Assembly: GCA_902627595.1 (NCBI GenBank)
Contig: CACOJO010000003.1
Span: 12,306 to 76,305 of the forward strand
Direction: 5' to 3'
Length of the DNA: 64,000 bases
Source of the DNA: an uncultured SAR86 cluster bacterium
Lineage (GTDB): Bacteria; Pseudomonadota; Gammaproteobacteria; Magnimaribacterales; AG-339-G14
This document shows positions 2,132-46,835 of the stretch, one piece after another. The stretch's first letter is position 1; each line of letters starts with the position of its first letter. The position numbers and the translations under genes were made by a program. The notes beneath the pieces were generated by a model. The model ran no database searches. It saw nothing but the letters and a program-made list of their open reading frames with translations, and was not told the DNA's origin.

Positions 2132-4012
2132 CTAATTTATTACTCTTAGATCTATTCTTTTTCTAGAAGTTTCCACGGATTTTATTTTAATTTTAAATTT
2201 ATCACCCAAAGCATAGATATCATTTTTATTTGCTGATACTAAAGAATGAGCCTTTGCATCGTGAACATAATAAGGCGATTTCTTAAGATTCCTTATATGA
2301 CAAAATCCCTCAATATTTAGATCATTTATGTGCATAAATAATCCAAATTCTAATACTGAAACAACTTCCCCAATGAACTCCTTGCCAATATGTTCTTCGG
2401 CACATTTGCAACTTAAATATTTAGAAGATTCTCTAACAATTTTTTCTGCCTCTCTATCTTTCTCACTACAGACTAAAGCTATTTCGTCTATTTCATCTTG
2501 AGAGTAGGAGCTTACCTTTTTGTCAATTATAGACTTTATGACTCTGTGGGTTACCAGATCAGCATATCTTCTAATTGGAGAGGTGAAATGGCAATATTCT
2601 TCAAGCCCAAGTGCGAAATGATTACTTTCCTTTCCTGAATAAACAGCTAGCTTCATGCTTCTTAAAATTTGATAAATCAAAGAGAAGGATTTATCTTTTT
2701 GCTTAATTTCTTTCAGCCAATCATTTAGTTTTTTCCTAGGATTCGCCTCATTCATGCCTTTGCGCAGACCTCTGGTTTTGAGAAATTCTTTTAGATTTTC
2801 TAATTCATTTAAATCAGGATTATCATGATGACGAAACGGAATTGGAGTTTTGAGTTTTTTGGTTAACTTAGCAGCACAAATGTTTGCCAAAATCATGGCT
2901 TCTTCTATAACTTCATTTGCCATTAAGTGATTTATTGATTTGAACTTTATAATTTTATTTCCCTTACCAAAAGGCCTGTATTCAGGAAGATAAAAATCTA
3001 TAGCTTTTCTTTTTCCTCTTATTTTTCGTCTCAAAATGTGTATTTTTTTTAGAATTCTTAAATTAGAGAGAACATTTTCAGATAGAGCAATCTGACCTTT
3101 TTGATAAAATTTTTCTACTTCGTCATAGGTGAGACGGCTTTTAGAACAAATAACGGAATTGAAAAATTCAAAAGATTTTAGCTCTCCCGCTTTATCAAGA
3201 TAAATTTCACAGGTCAAAACTAACTTATCTTCATTAGGCCTCAAGGAACAAAGTTGATTTGATATAAGCTCCGGAAGCATTGGCACGACTTTTTTTTCAA
3301 AATATACCGAAGTTCCTCTAGACAAAGCTTCTTTATCAAGTTGAGAGTTTATTGCTACATATTCGGAAACATCTGCAATAGCAACATATAAAACATAGCC
3401 ATCGGGACTTTCCTTTGCATAAACAGCGTCATCAAAATCTTTAGCATTGTTTCCGTCAATAGTGACAAAATCTAAACTTCTAAGATCTTTTCTTGACTCG
3501 ATGTCTTGCAAAGAAATTTCTTTATTAATCTTGTTGCATTCATTGATGACAGGTTTGGACCATTCGGTAGAAAGATCAGATCCACTGGTAGCAAAAATAA
3601 AAGCCTCCTCAAAAACATCATTACTTTTCAGAGTCTTGATAGGTTTTGCCTTCGGCTTATACTTCAGGGAAGGTTGAGAGGTTATTTTTACTTCACAGAT
3701 ATCATTCACTTTAAGATTTTTTAAATTCTTGCCTTCTAGCAATATTTCAAGATGAAAACTTTTATCTAAACTAGTTAGAAAAGTCTTGCCTTTGTGCTTT
3801 TTAATAACGCCTGTGAGCTCTCTAGTATTTCTTTTGATAACTTCTTTAATTTTTGCCTTGCTTCCAGGCATTTTTTGACAGACCACATCATCTCCCGGAA
3901 AAACTTTGAACATTTCTCTTTTAGATAAGGAAAGATACTCTTCATCTGAATACTTAACTCTTCCTCTGCCAGATTTATTCAAAAATATCCTAGCTTTGAA
4001 ACTTTCTTTCAT
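2132..4012 (-). CDS. rnr: Ribonuclease R (short form, lacks N-terminal HTH and basic C-tail)
   Basis: TIDGNNAKDFDDA catalytic motif, HFTSPIRRYADL, C-terminal S1 domain; rnr-rlmB synteny. Confidence 0.9.
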   Translation of the reverse strand: MKESFKARIFLNKSGRGRVKYSDEEYLSLSKREMFKVFPGDDVVCQKMPGSKAKIKEVIKRNTRELTGVIKKHKGKTFLTSLDKSFHLEILLEGKNLKNLKVNDICEVKITSQPSLKYKPKAKPIKTLKSNDVFEEAFIFATSGSDLSTEWSKPVINECNKINKEISLQDIESRKDLRSLDFVTIDGNNAKDFDDAVYAKESPDGYVLYVAIADVSEYVAINSQLDKEALSRGTSVYFEKKVVPMLPELISNQLCSLRPNEDKLVLTCEIYLDKAGELKSFEFFNSVICSKSRLTYDEVEKFYQKGQIALSENVLSNLRILKKIHILRRKIRGKRKAIDFYLPEYRPFGKGNKIIKFKSINHLMANEVIEEAMILANICAAKLTKKLKTPIPFRHHDNPDLNELENLKEFLKTRGLRKGMNEANPRKKLNDWLKEIKQKDKSFSLIYQILRSMKLAVYSGKESNHFALGLEEYCHFTSPIRRYADLVTHRVIKSIIDKKVSSYSQDEIDEIALVCSEKDREAEKIVRESSKYLSCKCAEEHIGKEFIGEVVSVLEFGLFMHINDLNIEGFCHIRNLKKSPYYVHDAKAHSLVSANKNDIYALGDKFKIKIKSVETSRKRIDLRVIN

Positions 4013-7516: not shown

Positions 7517-8305
7517 TTAATTTATTTTTATTGAAACTTCTCCAGAAGAAATTTTTCTTATTTCTTCATTTATTTTTACCTTTAGCATCCCATCAGAATC
7601 AACATCTAAAGCTAATACATTAGAGTCATCATAGTTTGAAAGATAAATTTTTTTATCCTTTAAAAAATTTAATTTGTTAAATTCTTTTTCATAATAAACA
7701 AACCCCTTTTTTTCGAAATTATTTTTATTTGAAATTATTTCGTTTGCTATGTTGGCGATTATTTCATTTCTATCAAAAACAATTTTTTTAGCTTCTAATT
7801 TTAAAGAGGTCCAATCACGTTTAATTTTTGAATTACTTGTCATAAAAACATTTAAGCCAATTCCAACAACAATCAAATTGTTTTGGTCTCTAGTTAAAGT
7901 CTCAATTAAAATTCCTCCAACTTTTTTTTTGTTTAGATAAATATCATTTGGCCATTTAATTTTCGTGTGAATATTTTTCTTTAAAAGAACATTATGAATT
8001 GCGATAGCTGTTACTAAACTGAAAGAGCTAAAGTTTCTCAATTCATGATCCGTAGTAAAACTCAAAGACATATAAATATTTTCATTTTTTGGACTTTGCC
8101 ATTGTTTTAAATTTCTACCTCTACCTTTGGTTTGGCTTTCAGCTAGGCAAAGACATATTTTTTTTGTATTTGCAGAGTTAATTAGATAATCGTTAGTTGA
8201 TTCTACTTCTTCAAAAATAGACAAATCCCAGTCAATATCGCTATTTTTTTTTAGAAAATTTAATATTTTTTCTTCTTTTAAAGTATTTTGTTTGACATCT
8301 TCCAT
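7517..8305 (-). CDS. birA: Biotin--[acetyl-CoA carboxylase] ligase lacking the N-terminal HTH
   Basis: STN, AESQTKGRGR, KWPND, KKVGGILIE, GIGLN motifs. Confidence 0.93.
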   Translation of the reverse strand: MEDVKQNTLKEEKILNFLKKNSDIDWDLSIFEEVESTNDYLINSANTKKICLCLAESQTKGRGRNLKQWQSPKNENIYMSLSFTTDHELRNFSSFSLVTAIAIHNVLLKKNIHTKIKWPNDIYLNKKKVGGILIETLTRDQNNLIVVGIGLNVFMTSNSKIKRDWTSLKLEAKKIVFDRNEIIANIANEIISNKNNFEKKGFVYYEKEFNKLNFLKDKKIYLSNYDDSNVLALDVDSDGMLKVKINEEIRKISSGEVSIKIN

Positions 8306-8320
8306 ATGTACTCAGAGAAT
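8292..8320 (+). promoter_or_regulatory. Putative sigma70 promoter for tRNA-Tyr, overlapping the birA start
   Basis: TTGACA(8292-8297)-17 nt-GAGAAT(8315-8320), 13 nt before the tRNA. Confidence 0.55.
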
Positions 8321-8333
8321 ACACAACTCTATA

Positions 8334-8417
8334 GGAGGGGTTGGGGAGCGGTCAAACCCATCTGACTGTAAATCAGACGCTTCGGCTTCGCAGGTTCGAA
8401 TCCTGCCCCCTCCACCA
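8334..8417 (+). tRNA. tRNA-Tyr(GTA)
   Basis: GGAGGGG/CCCCTCC acceptor stem, CTGTAAA anticodon loop, long variable arm, GGTTCGAATCC, encoded CCA. Confidence 0.97.
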
Positions 8418-8423
8418 AAAGTG

Positions 8424-8452
8424 TTGCAATTAAGCAAAAATTTAAGTATAAA
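8424..8452 (+). promoter_or_regulatory. Putative sigma70 promoter for tRNA-Thr-tuf-tRNA-Trp-secE
   Basis: TTGCAA-17 nt-TATAAA followed by GC-rich discriminator GCCG. Confidence 0.7.
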
Positions 8453-8532
8453 GCCGTTCGGAGCAACGGGTGTTGAGAGTGATTTATTAATCTACTTTTT
8501 ATCTTGCCGTCTCCTAAATTATTAAGGGACCT

Positions 8533-8608
<76 letters not shown>

Positions 8609-8637: not shown

Positions 8638-9831
8638 ATGTCAAAAGAAAAATTCGAAAGAACCAAGCCGCATTTAAACGTGGGAACAATCGGTCACGTT
8701 GATCATGGTAAAACTACTTTAACCGCTGCGCTCACAAAAGTTTGTGCTGAAGTTCAAGGTACTGGTGAAGCAATTGCTTTTGATGGAATTGATAATGCTC
8801 CAGAAGAAAAAGAAAGAGGAATAACAATTGCAACTTCTCATGTGGAATATGACTCACCTGCCAGACACTATGCTCATGTAGATTGTCCAGGTCATGCAGA
8901 CTACATCAAAAATATGATTACTGGCGCTGCGCAAATGGACGGAGCTATTTTGGTTGTGAATTGTGCTGATGGTCCTATGCCTCAAACTAGAGAACATATT
9001 CTTTTAGCTAGACAAGTTGGAGTGCCTTATATTGTTGTTTACTTGAATAAAGCAGATCAAGTAGATGATGCAGAGCTTATTGAGCTTGTAGAAGTAGAAG
9101 TTAGGGATTTATTGAATGAATATGAGTTCCCTGGAGATGATACTCCTATTATTGTCGGCTCAGCTTTAAAAGCTCTTGAAGGAGAAGACTCAGAACATGG
9201 TAAGCAATCCGTAGTTAAATTAGTAGAGGCTTTAGACTCTTACATCCCAGAACCAACAAGAGAAACAGACAAACCTTTTTTAATGCCAATAGAAGACATT
9301 TTCTCCATTCAAGGACGTGGAACTGTTGTTACTGGAAGAATTGAAAGAGGGGAAGTTAAAGTGAATGATGAAATGGAAATTGTTGGTATAAGAGATACTG
9401 AAAAGACAGTTTGTACAGGAGTAGAAATGTTCAGGAAGCTTTTAGATGAAGGTAAAGCTGGAGAGAATGTTGGAGTTCTTTTAAGAGGTACAAAAAGAGA
9501 AGATGTAGAAAGAGGACAAGTTCTTTCGGCGCCTGGTTCAATTACTCCTCACACCAAATTTGAAGCTCAAGTATATGTGCTAAGCAAAGAGGAAGGTGGA
9601 AGACATACTCCTTTCTTCAAAGGGTACAGACCTCAATTTTACGTAAGAACAACCGACGTTACAGGAGAAGTTACGCTTCCAGATGGTGTAGAGATGGTTA
9701 TGCCAGGTGACGATGTTGCTGTGACAGTAGAGTTGATTTCACCAGTAGCAATGGAAGATGGTATGAAGTTCGCCATTCGTGAAGGAGGCAGAACTGTAGG
9801 TGCTGGAGTAGTTTCTAAAATTATTCAATAG
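8638..9831 (+). CDS. tuf: Elongation factor Tu
   Basis: [33 protein letters not shown] upstream. Confidence 0.99.
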
Positions 9832-9905
9832 GCCAGTAGCTCAATTGGTAGAGCGGCGGTCTCCAAAACCGCAGGTTGGGGGTTCAATTCCCTCCTGGCC
9901 TGCCA
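9830..9905 (+). tRNA. tRNA-Trp(CCA); first 2 nt overlap the tuf stop codon
   Basis: AGGCCAG(9830-9836)/CTGGCCT acceptor stem, CTCCAAA anticodon loop, GGTTCAATTCC, G-CCA end; exactly 76 nt. Confidence 0.97.
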
Positions 9906-9954: not shown

Positions 9955-10296
9955 ATGTTTTTAAGTAAAAGTCTTTGGTTAGTAGGATTAGCAATTATTG
10001 CAACTGCAGTGTGGGGCAATTCTTATTACAATGATCTTGGACTCCTCTACAGAGTCCTTGGGGTTATTGTTTTATTTATTTTAGGGCTTTTCGTTCTAAG
10101 ATTTACTGAATTTGGTTCGCTTGCATTTGAAACTATTAAACAATCTACTACCGAAATTAGAAAAGTAGTTTGGCCAAATAGAACTGAAACTACCCAAACT
10201 ACTCTAATTGTCGTGGGAGTGGTCATAATTGCTGCTCTGATTTTATGGGGTCTAGACTCTCTATTTTCTTTTTTAATGAGTTTAATTTTAGGTTAA
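9955..10296 (+). CDS. secE: Preprotein translocase subunit SecE
   Basis: EIRKVVWP motif, three hydrophobic segments, position before nusG. Confidence 0.95.
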   Translation: MFLSKSLWLVGLAIIATAVWGNSYYNDLGLLYRVLGVIVLFILGLFVLRFTEFGSLAFETIKQSTTEIRKVVWPNRTETTQTTLIVVGVVIIAALILWGLDSLFSFLMSLILG

Positions 10297-45205: not shown

Positions 45206-45984
45206 CTTTCTAACTTGATTTTTACTAACAAAAAAATCTTATAAACTAACCTGGTGAGTTCGTTTGCCAATCGAAAAGGAACCATAAGCCAATATCTCTT
45301 ATAGAAAGCAAATTTATATTCACTTTTTGCTTGTATGTAGGAATTTCCTAAATGTAAATCTTCTTTAAGATAAACTGGAGCAGGTGTAATGCTTAGAGAT
45401 CTTAGATTTAAAAGCCAATCTCTATCCATAGCATGATCAATAGGAAGACTCATTATATCCAATCTTTGTAAAATATTTTTAGCTCCTAATCTATTAATTA
45501 AATAACACCCAGTTCCAGACTTAAATCCCAAATTAAGAGCTAAATAAAAATTTTTATGAATTTTTTTTAATTTTATTGGTAAACCCTTCTCTTTAGTTTT
45601 ATCACTACCACCGCTTAGTCTTAACAAATCAAAATTTATTCCGGAATTAAGAGCGCTATCGATTATTTTCTTAATATTTTCATCAAACTCAATATCATCT
45701 TCACAAACAAGGGCATAATCTTCATTTGAATTTAAAAATTTTTTTAGTACATTGAGATGGCTGAAATAACAACCTAATTCTCCAAGATTGGTTTTTTTAC
45801 CATGCAACAAATTATATTTAAGTTCTGAATAATTTTGATGGGGTAAAGATATTCTCTTGCCGTCTACGGCTACTTCCAATTCAAATTTTATACCGACTTT
45901 CTTGAAGGTTTCTGTTGCAGAAACCAACCTATCATGTGCTCTTTCAAGATTAATTAAATACGCAATCACTTCTGAAGTATACAT
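45202..45984 (-). CDS. Glycosyltransferase family 25 (LPS/LOS biosynthesis type)
   Basis: YLINLERAHDR, AVDG, GELGCYFSH, ALVCEDD, GTGCYLI, PID motifs. ATG at 45984 is the first start that does not lie deep inside tmRNA. Confidence 0.88.
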   Translation of the reverse strand: MYTSEVIAYLINLERAHDRLVSATETFKKVGIKFELEVAVDGKRISLPHQNYSELKYNLLHGKKTNLGELGCYFSHLNVLKKFLNSNEDYALVCEDDIEFDENIKKIIDSALNSGINFDLLRLSGGSDKTKEKGLPIKLKKIHKNFYLALNLGFKSGTGCYLINRLGAKNILQRLDIMSLPIDHAMDRDWLLNLRSLSITPAPVYLKEDLHLGNSYIQAKSEYKFAFYKRYWLMVPFRLANELTRLVYKIFLLVKIKLES

Positions 45985-46333
45985 GGTGGAGGCGGCGGGT
46001 ATCGAACCCGCGTCCATCAATCTATCCCTATCAGCTCTACATGCTTAGATTCATCTTTTAAGTTCCTTTTTAAATCTCCGATGAGCAGGATAAATAAAAA
46101 GTATTCTGTAAAAACTTATTAGAAAAATTACAGAAAAATTTTCCTAAGCAATCTATTATTCGACTTTCATTTACCCTAATAGATATCAGGTAAAGAAAGC
46201 TAACCGAATTATGCGGCTAGTGCGTAGTTTGCTTTATTGCCAACTAATTTTTTTGTAACTTTTTTTACGAGTTTGTTACCAGCTCGACATGCACTTTAAG
46301 TTCAAAAACAGATGTCTAATCCATTTCGCCCCC
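45984..46333 (-). ncRNA. ssrA: tmRNA (350 nt); tag reading frame 46241..46209 = GNKANYALAA*
   Basis: 5' GGGGGCG pairs with 3' CGCCTCC-ACCA including G3.U70; GGTTCGATACC T loop; tag ending YALAA-stop; adjacent to smpB. Confidence 0.96.
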
Positions 46334-46358: not shown

Positions 46359-46835
46359 TTATGAAAAGTTTCTATTAAGTTTTGAGGTTTTGGCTTTTTC
46401 TTTTTTCCATTCCCTTTGCCTTATGCTCTCTCTTTTATCAAACTTTGATTTACCCTTTCCTAAACCTATTTTTATTTTTATCAAATTATCTTTCCAAAAA
46501 ATTTTTAAGGGTAAGCAAGTCAGGCCTTTTTCTTGAGTTCCTTTAAAAATTTTTGATAACTCAGATTTAGTCAAAAGTAACTTTCTCGTTCTTAATGGAT
46601 CTACTGAATGAGTCACTTGATTTGATGGAGAAATGGACATCCCTATAAGCCAAGCCTCTCCTTTTCTCATAACGATGTAGCTATCTTTAATATCTACTTT
46701 GGAAACTCTTATTGATTTTACTTCCCAGCCCAACAAAGAGATACCTGCTTCGAAATTCTCACCTAGTTCGTAATTAAATCTTGCTTGTCTATTTTCAATT
46801 ATAGGTTTGTTATTTATTTTCTTGTCTTGAACCAT
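46359..46835 (-). CDS. smpB: SsrA-binding protein
   Basis: NRQARFNY, EAGISLLGWEVKSIR, DPLRTRKLLL, GKGK..DKRE. Confidence 0.97.
   Translation of the reverse strand: MVQDKKINNKPIIENRQARFNYELGENFEAGISLLGWEVKSIRVSKVDIKDSYIVMRKGEAWLIGMSISPSNQVTHSVDPLRTRKLLLTKSELSKIFKGTQEKGLTCLPLKIFWKDNLIKIKIGLGKGKSKFDKRESIRQREWKKEKAKTSKLNRNFS

Follow-up and report, generated by a model that had tools for sequence, protein, structure and literature searches.

How does a bacterium make its elongation factor Tu when the stop codon of the gene is also the start of a tRNA? In a 64,000-nt stretch of SAR86 DNA (the window, which denotes this whole stretch throughout), the TAG that ends tuf supplies the first two bases of the tRNA-Trp gene (trnW), and a canonical RNase P cut in front of the tRNA is predicted to leave an mRNA ending ...CAA-U. 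The original prediction likened this arrangement to mitochondrial tRNA punctuation, in which the truncated mRNA would either be mended to UAA by poly(A) addition or be routed to trans-translation and decay, and proposed that EF-Tu output is thereby coupled to tRNA-Trp processing. Here we examine the junction, its history and the machinery that would act on it.

Anatomy of the junction

The tuf stop codon lies inside tRNA-Trp by two bases. The gene ends ...AAA ATT ATT CAA TAG GCCAGTAGCTCA..., with GCCAG directly 3′ of the TAG, and the 7-bp acceptor stem of the tRNA (AGGCCAG/CTGGCCT) requires both A9830 and G9831. ARAGORN and Rfam (RF00005, 9830–9902; 72.5 bits, gathering score 29) begin the tRNA at the same base. 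Every detail of the proposed overlap that we checked was correct (Table 1). The isolated 76-mer did not adopt a cloverleaf on folding, and the identity of the tRNA thus rests on these two programs; minimum-free-energy folding with the 5′ strand occluded was uninformative for the same reason. The geometry of the predicted RNase P cut is sound, and RNase P RNA (rnpB) of the normal type A is present in the source genome (G000; 1.14-Mb assembly, 85% complete). This genome holds one tuf and one tRNA-Trp gene, and a check for further copies gave one DNA match per genome in 21 of 21 matching relatives from the same family (f1) and in 6 of 6 from a second family (f2); f1–f4 and the g-numbers are working labels for families and genera of the order. 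EF-Tu is likewise single in the relative G017 (one contig, 97% complete), and tuf is single-copy in the more distant genomes G266, G268 and G269. As originally described, tRNA-Thr precedes tuf and no tuf follows fusA in the window. The open reading frame (ORF) 3′ of tRNA-Trp is presumably secE, which in the usual gene order precedes nusG.

The last tuf codons (9803–9826) could form a 9-bp AU/GU-rich hairpin that ends 3 nt before the predicted cut and might protect the cut tuf 3′ end. Farther upstream, two weak hairpins without an Rfam match are possible in the 115-nt spacer between tRNA-Tyr and tRNA-Thr (8418–8532). A tRNA-Gly gene usually stands between these two; it is absent here, and both tRNA-Gly genes of G000 are on contig C8.

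Table 1. Features of the window that bear on the tuf–tRNA-Trp junction.
Feature	Position	Strand	Basis or remark
RNB-family exoribonuclease (RNase R/II type), sole one found in the genome	2132..4012	-	match G000:C3:14827-15798 = window 2522-3493
Best sigma-70-like site (10/12), 5′ of tRNA-Tyr; putative 5′ end of a Tyr-Thr-tuf-Trp transcript	8292..8320	+	motif scan, not above chance
tRNA-Tyr(GTA), same cluster, upstream	8334..8417	+	ARAGORN
tRNA-Thr(GGT), end 29 nt 5′ of tuf start	8533..8608	+	ARAGORN, gap listing
tuf (EF-Tu, 397 aa), sole copy found in the assembly	8638..9831	+	ORF list, single-copy search
TAG stop = tRNA-Trp position -1 (T) and positions 1-2 (A, G)	9829..9831	+	sequence, ARAGORN, Rfam
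Predicted RNase P cut, between the two bases	9829..9830	+	inferred from tRNA position 1; rnpB present
tRNA-Trp(CCA), CCA end encoded, sole copy found	9830..9905	+	ARAGORN, Rfam
ORF 3′ of tRNA-Trp, putative secE by position	9955..10296	+	ORF list
tmRNA, tag frame GNKANYALAA*	45984..46333	-	ARAGORN, Rfam
smpB, identified by inspecting its translation	46359..46835	-	25 nt upstream of tmRNA

Conservation and history in the order

A search pattern blind to the base at position -1 was run on 266 genomes of the order and matched 77. The exact two-base overlap (-2) was present in 57 of these, representing 10 genera of f1 and f2, and in genus g10 all 20 matches read stop-T-AGG without overlap (19 TAG-TAG and 1 TAA-TAG); 20 further f1 and f2 genomes (50–85% complete) gave no match and were left out of the tally. 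None of the 169 f3 and f4 genomes matched the tight junction, and spacers in those inspected were 37–76 nt long. An assembly error that had swallowed a spacer between the TAG and the tRNA can be rejected, given the identical overlap in 57 genomes of 10 genera and the RNA-library contigs that cross the junction without a spacer.

The order consists of four families in two sister pairs. In a tree of 21 genomes built from seven concatenated proteins (2,571 columns), f1 and f2 form a clade and g10 is nested among the overlap-bearing genera, with g22 as its sister and then g20 (UFBoot 100 for both placements). RedeBAC7D11 and Magnimaribacteraceae have been reported as sister families of the SAR86 order (PMC11582366), and we infer that they correspond to f1 and f2. 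Family f2 includes both overlapping and reverted junctions and is likely the family of the cultured SAR86 strain HIMB1674. The simplest history of the sampled junctions is one gain in the ancestor of f1 and f2 and one loss in g10 through duplication of the TAG—that is, one loss among 11 genera with a tight junction—and on this history the overlap is old and stable, yet dispensable. The tuf–trnW spacers of four outgroup loci (L123, L125, L126 and L127) carry either a terminator-like hairpin (f3) or TATA(A/C)T followed by AGGAGATCG (f4), which suggests that trnW was formerly regulated on its own, prior to loss of the spacer.

Recurrence in other lineages

The overlap also occurs outside the order. 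A GTDB-wide scan for gaps of up to +4 yielded 67 of an estimated ~130 loci; it required T at -1 and is blind to gaps of 0 or -1 with TAA or TGA. Among the loci returned, -2 was the commonest tight-junction state (48), followed by +4 (12), +1 (4), +2 (1) and +3 (1), with one spurious hit. Twelve of the 48 were SAR86-like, 14 were labelled Pelagibacteraceae and 22 had other labels (Pseudomonadales, including Pseudohongiella and Azotimanducaceae chromosomes, Burkholderiales, Nitrosomonadales, Rhodospirillales, Micropepsaceae and Pirellulales), although several of the loci outside SAR86 and SAR11 are on short contigs of metagenome-assembled genomes and may be mislabelled. In the SAR11 genus of G266, 90 of 121 genomes matched, with gaps of +5 or +6 (75), -2 (12), +8 (1), +3 (1) and +1 (1). 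The overlap was absent among the matches listed in a separate SAR11 search (150 of 214), and a class-wide sample gave a tight junction in 35 of 401 genomes and the overlap in 3 (1 of 397 outside the SAR86 order); this list and these tallies include three unpublished genomes (G331, G442 and G839), none of which has the overlap. Metagenomes contributed eight stretches with a gap of 0 (7) or -1 (1), from a scan that has no matching -2 count and so allows no ratio to -2. The -2 state was also found in genomes of 3.5, 4.5 and 7.4 Mb (G268, G269 and G270, respectively). As judged from these junctions, the overlap has arisen repeatedly yet is rare, and the genomes that carry it need not be small; streamlining alone is therefore insufficient to account for it.

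Where T stands at -1, tight junctions (L041–L107) more often place the back-up T-AG in frame (gaps of +1 and +4, 16 loci) than out of frame (+2 and +3, 2 loci), in lineages that are not independent. Short tuf–trnW spacers of SAR11 (L210–L249) are often complementary to the 5′ strand of tRNA-Trp or to the last tuf codons, with apparent covariation (AGCTAC/GTAGCT versus AACTAC/GTAGTT; ACACT/AGTGT versus ACGCT/AGCGT). In 37 of 40 hand-picked, non-overlapping spacer types, pairing with the tRNA 5′ strand exceeded the shuffle mean, 9 of them at p ≤ 0.1, in kin that are not independent. Such pairing could form a leader hairpin, slowing the folding of the tRNA or hiding the AGGAG at its 5′ end.

Stops inside other tRNAs

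tRNA-Trp begins with AGG in every locus that we read. U is the commonest -1 base of bacterial pre-tRNAs (~60%; PMC10465520) and precedes 17 of the 29 tRNAs of G000. Once a spacer and the old stop have been deleted, the T-AG at the tRNA boundary is thus a ready stop, and chance makes it cheaply. Stop triplets are also available deeper in the molecule, at positions 8–10 of 20 of the 29 tRNAs.

Two further genes use such positions. The stop of ispE lies 10 nt inside tRNA-Gln, at tRNA positions 8–10 (L036:1478-2338, - strand; G000:C3:126413-127338), and the stop of an msrAB fusion lies 10 nt inside tRNA-Val(GAC) (L035:449-1784, + strand; G000:C2:68949-70284). For each gene, 41 genomes were searched, and 30 of them supplied the loci compared. 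The ispE junctions showed offsets of -10 (20), -21 (1), 0 (3) and +5 to +19 (5), with one locus truncated; the msrAB junctions showed -10 in 15 loci (g1) and -2, formed by T-AG as in tuf, in 3 (g3), with no tRNA in the other 12. Position 9 of tRNA-Gln is A in all 21 overlapping ispE loci and G in all 8 non-overlapping ones, and the ispE stop therefore seems to have been created by a change in the tRNA itself. Stops inside tRNAs are, in the genomes compared, a habit of family f1 with genus-dependent offsets. In G000, 3 of 29 tRNAs overlap the upstream ORF and 5 more lie within 0–5 nt of an ORF of at least 100 aa; most do neither, and tRNAs do not serve as mRNA ends genome-wide as in mitochondrial punctuation. 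Among the close neighbours are a MerR-like ORF that abuts tRNA-Pro with a gap of 0 (G000:C6:66854-67365), an aspartate kinase gene that ends 2 nt before tRNA-Ser (G000:C2:26052-27374) and secG, which ends 2 nt before tRNA-Leu (G000:C3:113966-114375).

These comparisons bear on whether the overlap was selected as a regulatory device. On that account, ribosomes at the stop codon would govern the access of RNase P by shielding the acceptor stem of tRNA-Trp, an arrangement evolved repeatedly in bacteria with a single tuf, including SAR86 and SAR11. A fall in tuf translation would then both release tRNA-Trp and trigger tmRNA-driven destruction of the tuf mRNA, balancing EF-Tu against tRNA supply, and EF-Tu, as the carrier of tmRNA, would help to clear its own message. 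That the overlap has been kept for so long, and has arisen more than once at this single junction, speaks for such a role, as do the single-copy state of tuf in five genomes (G000, G017, G266, G268 and G269) and the SAR11 spacer pairing, which hints that folding of the junction matters. Against these points stand the genus-wide reversal in g10, the similar overlaps at ispE and msrAB, whose offsets are -2, -10 and -21, and the 169 f3 and f4 genomes that lack a tight junction. Moreover, a terminating ribosome would cover the acceptor stem equally well with spacers of +1 to +6, which means that the overlap is not needed for such control. We consider selection for this role unlikely, and a tuf-specific regulatory coupling finds no support, given the genus-variable offsets at ispE and msrAB and the undoing of the tuf overlap in g10.

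Transcripts and promoters

The overlap itself forces tuf and tRNA-Trp to share a transcript for at least 2 nt. Because any tuf mRNA that has a stop contains tRNA bases, and because no terminator-like site was found on the + strand within tRNA-Trp, the two genes are probably co-transcribed. The RNA data consisted of contigs from 21 runs, none of which held half of the query words. Among the matches listed from the five runs compared with the junction (X1–X4 and X7; 24 of 406 and 24 of 58), none had an A-rich unaligned end beyond 9829–9830, and no clustering of ends was reported; because such contigs cannot show transcript ends or rare tails, this counts neither for nor against tailing. Two contigs of run X4 span the junction with no spacer and at least 31 nt on each side (9694–9901, 29 differences; 9727–9875, 9 differences); they derive from relatives, could partly represent DNA and are no proof of a single transcript. 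A record from run X1 (9625–9852, 1 difference) reaches 23 nt into the tRNA and falls below the 31-nt bridging rule.

The overlap would be nearly silent if mature tRNA-Trp came mostly from transcripts that no longer translate tuf, arising either from a promoter inside tuf or as decay intermediates in which RNase E has already cleaved farther upstream, with full-length non-stop tuf mRNA being rare. tRNAs are stable, and few cuts would be needed to supply them. A promoter-like site (9/12) does lie inside tuf at 9341–9369, and the outgroup spacers—two in f3 with terminator-like hairpins and two in f4 with TATA(A/C)T, as recognised by eye—suggest that trnW control was once separate. However, the promoter-like sites are no more frequent than expected by chance (6, against 4.7 ± 2.2 in shuffled sequences), every translatable tuf mRNA must extend into a tRNA without a terminator-like site, and Escherichia coli RNase P has been reported to cut the secG–leuU transcript directly (PMC2241853). 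A conserved -10 element for a leaderless tRNA (TAAAAT, 9816–9821) was also considered and rejected, its first base being T, C, A or G in different genera across the 57 junctions. We therefore regard such a bypass as rather unlikely.

Processing and rescue machinery

The truncated mRNA was originally given two possible fates, and the gene inventory favours one of them. The trans-translation branch is fully encoded: the tmRNA and SmpB genes are both in the window (SmpB by eye only), and the genome holds ClpX and both RF1 and RF2 in addition to the RNB-family exoribonuclease. Alternative rescue factors were not found—ArfA in none of five genomes, and a third RF-1-domain protein of the ArfB type in none of 41 genomes, where the same search detects a third such protein in G269 and G270.

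The other fate, poly(A) repair, is contradicted in the source family. No protein scored above the cut-off for the poly(A) polymerase PcnB in any of 26 f1 genomes (G000 and 25 others at least 85% complete), and the CCA-adding enzyme is the sole member of the PolyA_pol family in G000. Whereas relatives carry pcnB after dksA, G000 has dksA abutting folK on an unbroken contig (G000:C1:141300-142500), and the absence of pcnB is therefore real in this assembly (5 of 14 pcnB regions were used in the comparison, with L208–L209 among those left out). Other overlap genera in the same search gave 0 of 5 (g8), 0 of 2 (g20), 0 of 2 (g21) and 1 of 1 (g5), for a total of 1 of 36 overlap genomes, versus 68 of 68 non-overlap genomes; all 63 f3 and f4 genomes tested keep the gene. 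A strict antagonism between pcnB and the overlap was nevertheless dropped, as pcnB was found in less complete overlap genomes (g22, 2 of 2; g20, 1 of 1, G208) and in the Pseudomonadales-type overlap genomes G268 and G269. The SAR11 genome G266 gave no pcnB above the cut-off. Within f1 and f2, pcnB has apparently been lost several times. In the genomes compared, the overlap persists with or without pcnB, and stop completion by poly(A) polymerase thus cannot be a general solution.

In human mitochondria, the first tRNA bases complete the stop in uncut RNA at MT-ND2/TRNW and MT-ND1/TRNI, and RNase P removes them (PMC9674279). The anatomy at MT-ND2, where tRNA-Trp forms the in-frame stop, matches that of tuf, and here too the 5′ cut of the tRNA would truncate the stop to U. 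If A residues then completed ...CAA-U to UAA, a mature and translatable tuf mRNA would result; pcnB does co-occur with the overlap in g5, g20, g22, G268 and G269. All five genomes searched also encode PNPase, an enzyme able to add A-rich tails, and tailing by it is the sole remaining route to such completion. Mitochondria, however, translate the cut and polyadenylated mRNA (PMC9674279), whereas f1 has a tmRNA, yielded no poly(A) polymerase and probably translates the uncut transcript; judged by gene content, tuf–trnW departs from mitochondrial punctuation at the poly(A) polymerase step. Repair by tailing is further opposed by the absence of pcnB from all genomes searched in f1, g8 and g21 in contrast to its presence in all 68 non-overlap genomes, by the clean deletion at the syntenic slot and by the G266 result. 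The -10 overlaps at ispE and msrAB could not be mended by tailing without codon loss, and in E. coli PAP I has been reported to promote decay of the upstream mRNA (PMC2241853). We judge this form of repair very improbable.

The conflict between stop and tRNA would disappear altogether if cleavage fell after the UAG and a Thg1-like 3′–5′ polymerase rebuilt A1 and G2 of the tRNA, and 5′ tRNA repair does exist in some organisms. The Thg1 family was found in none of five overlap genomes (four of them 96–97% complete), with a Methanosarcina control positive, and the rnpB present is a normal one. Such a stop-sparing cut is scarcely credible.

A probable spacer-loss end-point with proposed trans-translation of the cut mRNA

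The explanation that we favour, and consider probable, is that the tuf stop is a tolerated end-point of spacer loss, and that the RNase P cut leaves a stop-less mRNA that is cleared by tmRNA–SmpB and exonucleases and not repaired. EF-Tu would be translated from uncut tuf–trnW RNA, with RF1 reading the UAG; bacterial ribosomes in vitro are reported to terminate at a stop formed by flanking tRNA sequence, and a stop-less end to block release (PMC9674279), which is the reason for placing translation before the cut. Each cut at 9829/9830 would release one tRNA-Trp, expose a 3′ end and close the life of that mRNA. By its footprint, a terminating ribosome would occlude the acceptor stem's 5′ strand, leaving RNase P to work between ribosomes or once translation wanes. 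Ribosomes still in transit would reach ...CAA-U and be rescued by tmRNA, with the protease and RNase R action described for this system (PMC8012679). A small amount of EF-Tu ending SKIIQ-AGNKANYALAA would be produced and then degraded, and if EF-Tu output is coupled to the supply of tRNA-Trp at all, this would be a by-product that does not explain why the overlap exists. In a toy model built on assumed rates, losses of output ranged from <1% to 57%, set mainly by mRNA lifetime and the number of tagged ribosomes, which demonstrates no more than that the cost could be tolerable.

Comparisons of junctions lend this explanation a graded series of spacers from +8 to -2 (in SAR11, GTDB and metagenomes), the reversal in g10 and the ispE and msrAB overlaps; by analogy and gene content, it is also consistent with the independence of the overlap from pcnB, the failure to find ArfA or ArfB, the secG–leuU precedent in E. 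coli and termination in vitro. Two observations from the same comparisons count against it: the overlap has been retained on the sole EF-Tu gene since the ancestor of two families, which is long for a pure cost, and -2 is the commonest tight state and is found in larger genomes as well.

Relation to known systems and significance

Overlap of a coding sequence with a downstream tRNA is already a known class, which tuf–trnW joins. Hudson, Lau and Williams (2014) reported 250 same-strand overlaps with an upstream coding sequence among 115,660 tRNAs and tmRNAs as candidate non-stop mRNAs—for example, smpB–ssrA in Carsonella and an FtsW/RodA-family gene with tRNA-Ile in Helicobacter—and presented the non-stop consequence as predicted, not measured (PMC4131195). 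As in those cases, a functional coding sequence runs into a valid same-strand tRNA gene, whose maturation should remove the stop; unlike them, the tuf overlap affects the sole EF-Tu gene, is fixed across two families and has a dated reversal and a repeated origin. The term 'tuf' is absent from the main text of that study (PMC4131195), and no paper describing a tuf/tRNA-Trp overlap was found in the literature searched, which left out most subscription papers and supplements.

Two other systems share parts of the proposed pathway. At secG–leuU of E. coli, one RNase P cut separates mRNA from tRNA and the upstream mRNA has a half-life of <30 s (Mohanty and Kushner, PMC2241853). A single transcript with one cut between its parts is probably shared with tuf–trnW, but a 14-nt spacer keeps the secG stop intact and the decay uses PAP I (PMC2241853), which was not found in f1. 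The mRNA of arfA is cut by RNase III and autoregulated as a non-stop message (PMC4131195, PMC10107115); as proposed for tuf, programmed cleavage delivers the message to trans-translation, but the product of arfA is a rescue factor that senses tmRNA capacity.

The present analysis adds a history of gain and reversal, convergent origins in other lineages, the distribution of pcnB and overlaps at two more genes, ispE and msrAB. The explanation makes a precise and falsifiable signature available, namely tuf 3′ ends at 9829 and EF-Tu ending SKIIQ-AGNKANYALAA, and sister genera provide a natural control in which the -2 junction can be set against a +1 TAG-TAG revertant. More generally, the conserved tRNA positions -1/1/2 and 8–10 are ready-made stops once spacers vanish. 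If ribosome occupancy does govern RNase P access at this junction, it would be a new tie between tRNA maturation and translation. For these abundant marine bacteria, overlap of a coding sequence with a tRNA now extends to the single EF-Tu gene, and such junctions can be kept by bacteria without a poly(A) polymerase, which marks a difference from mitochondrial punctuation.
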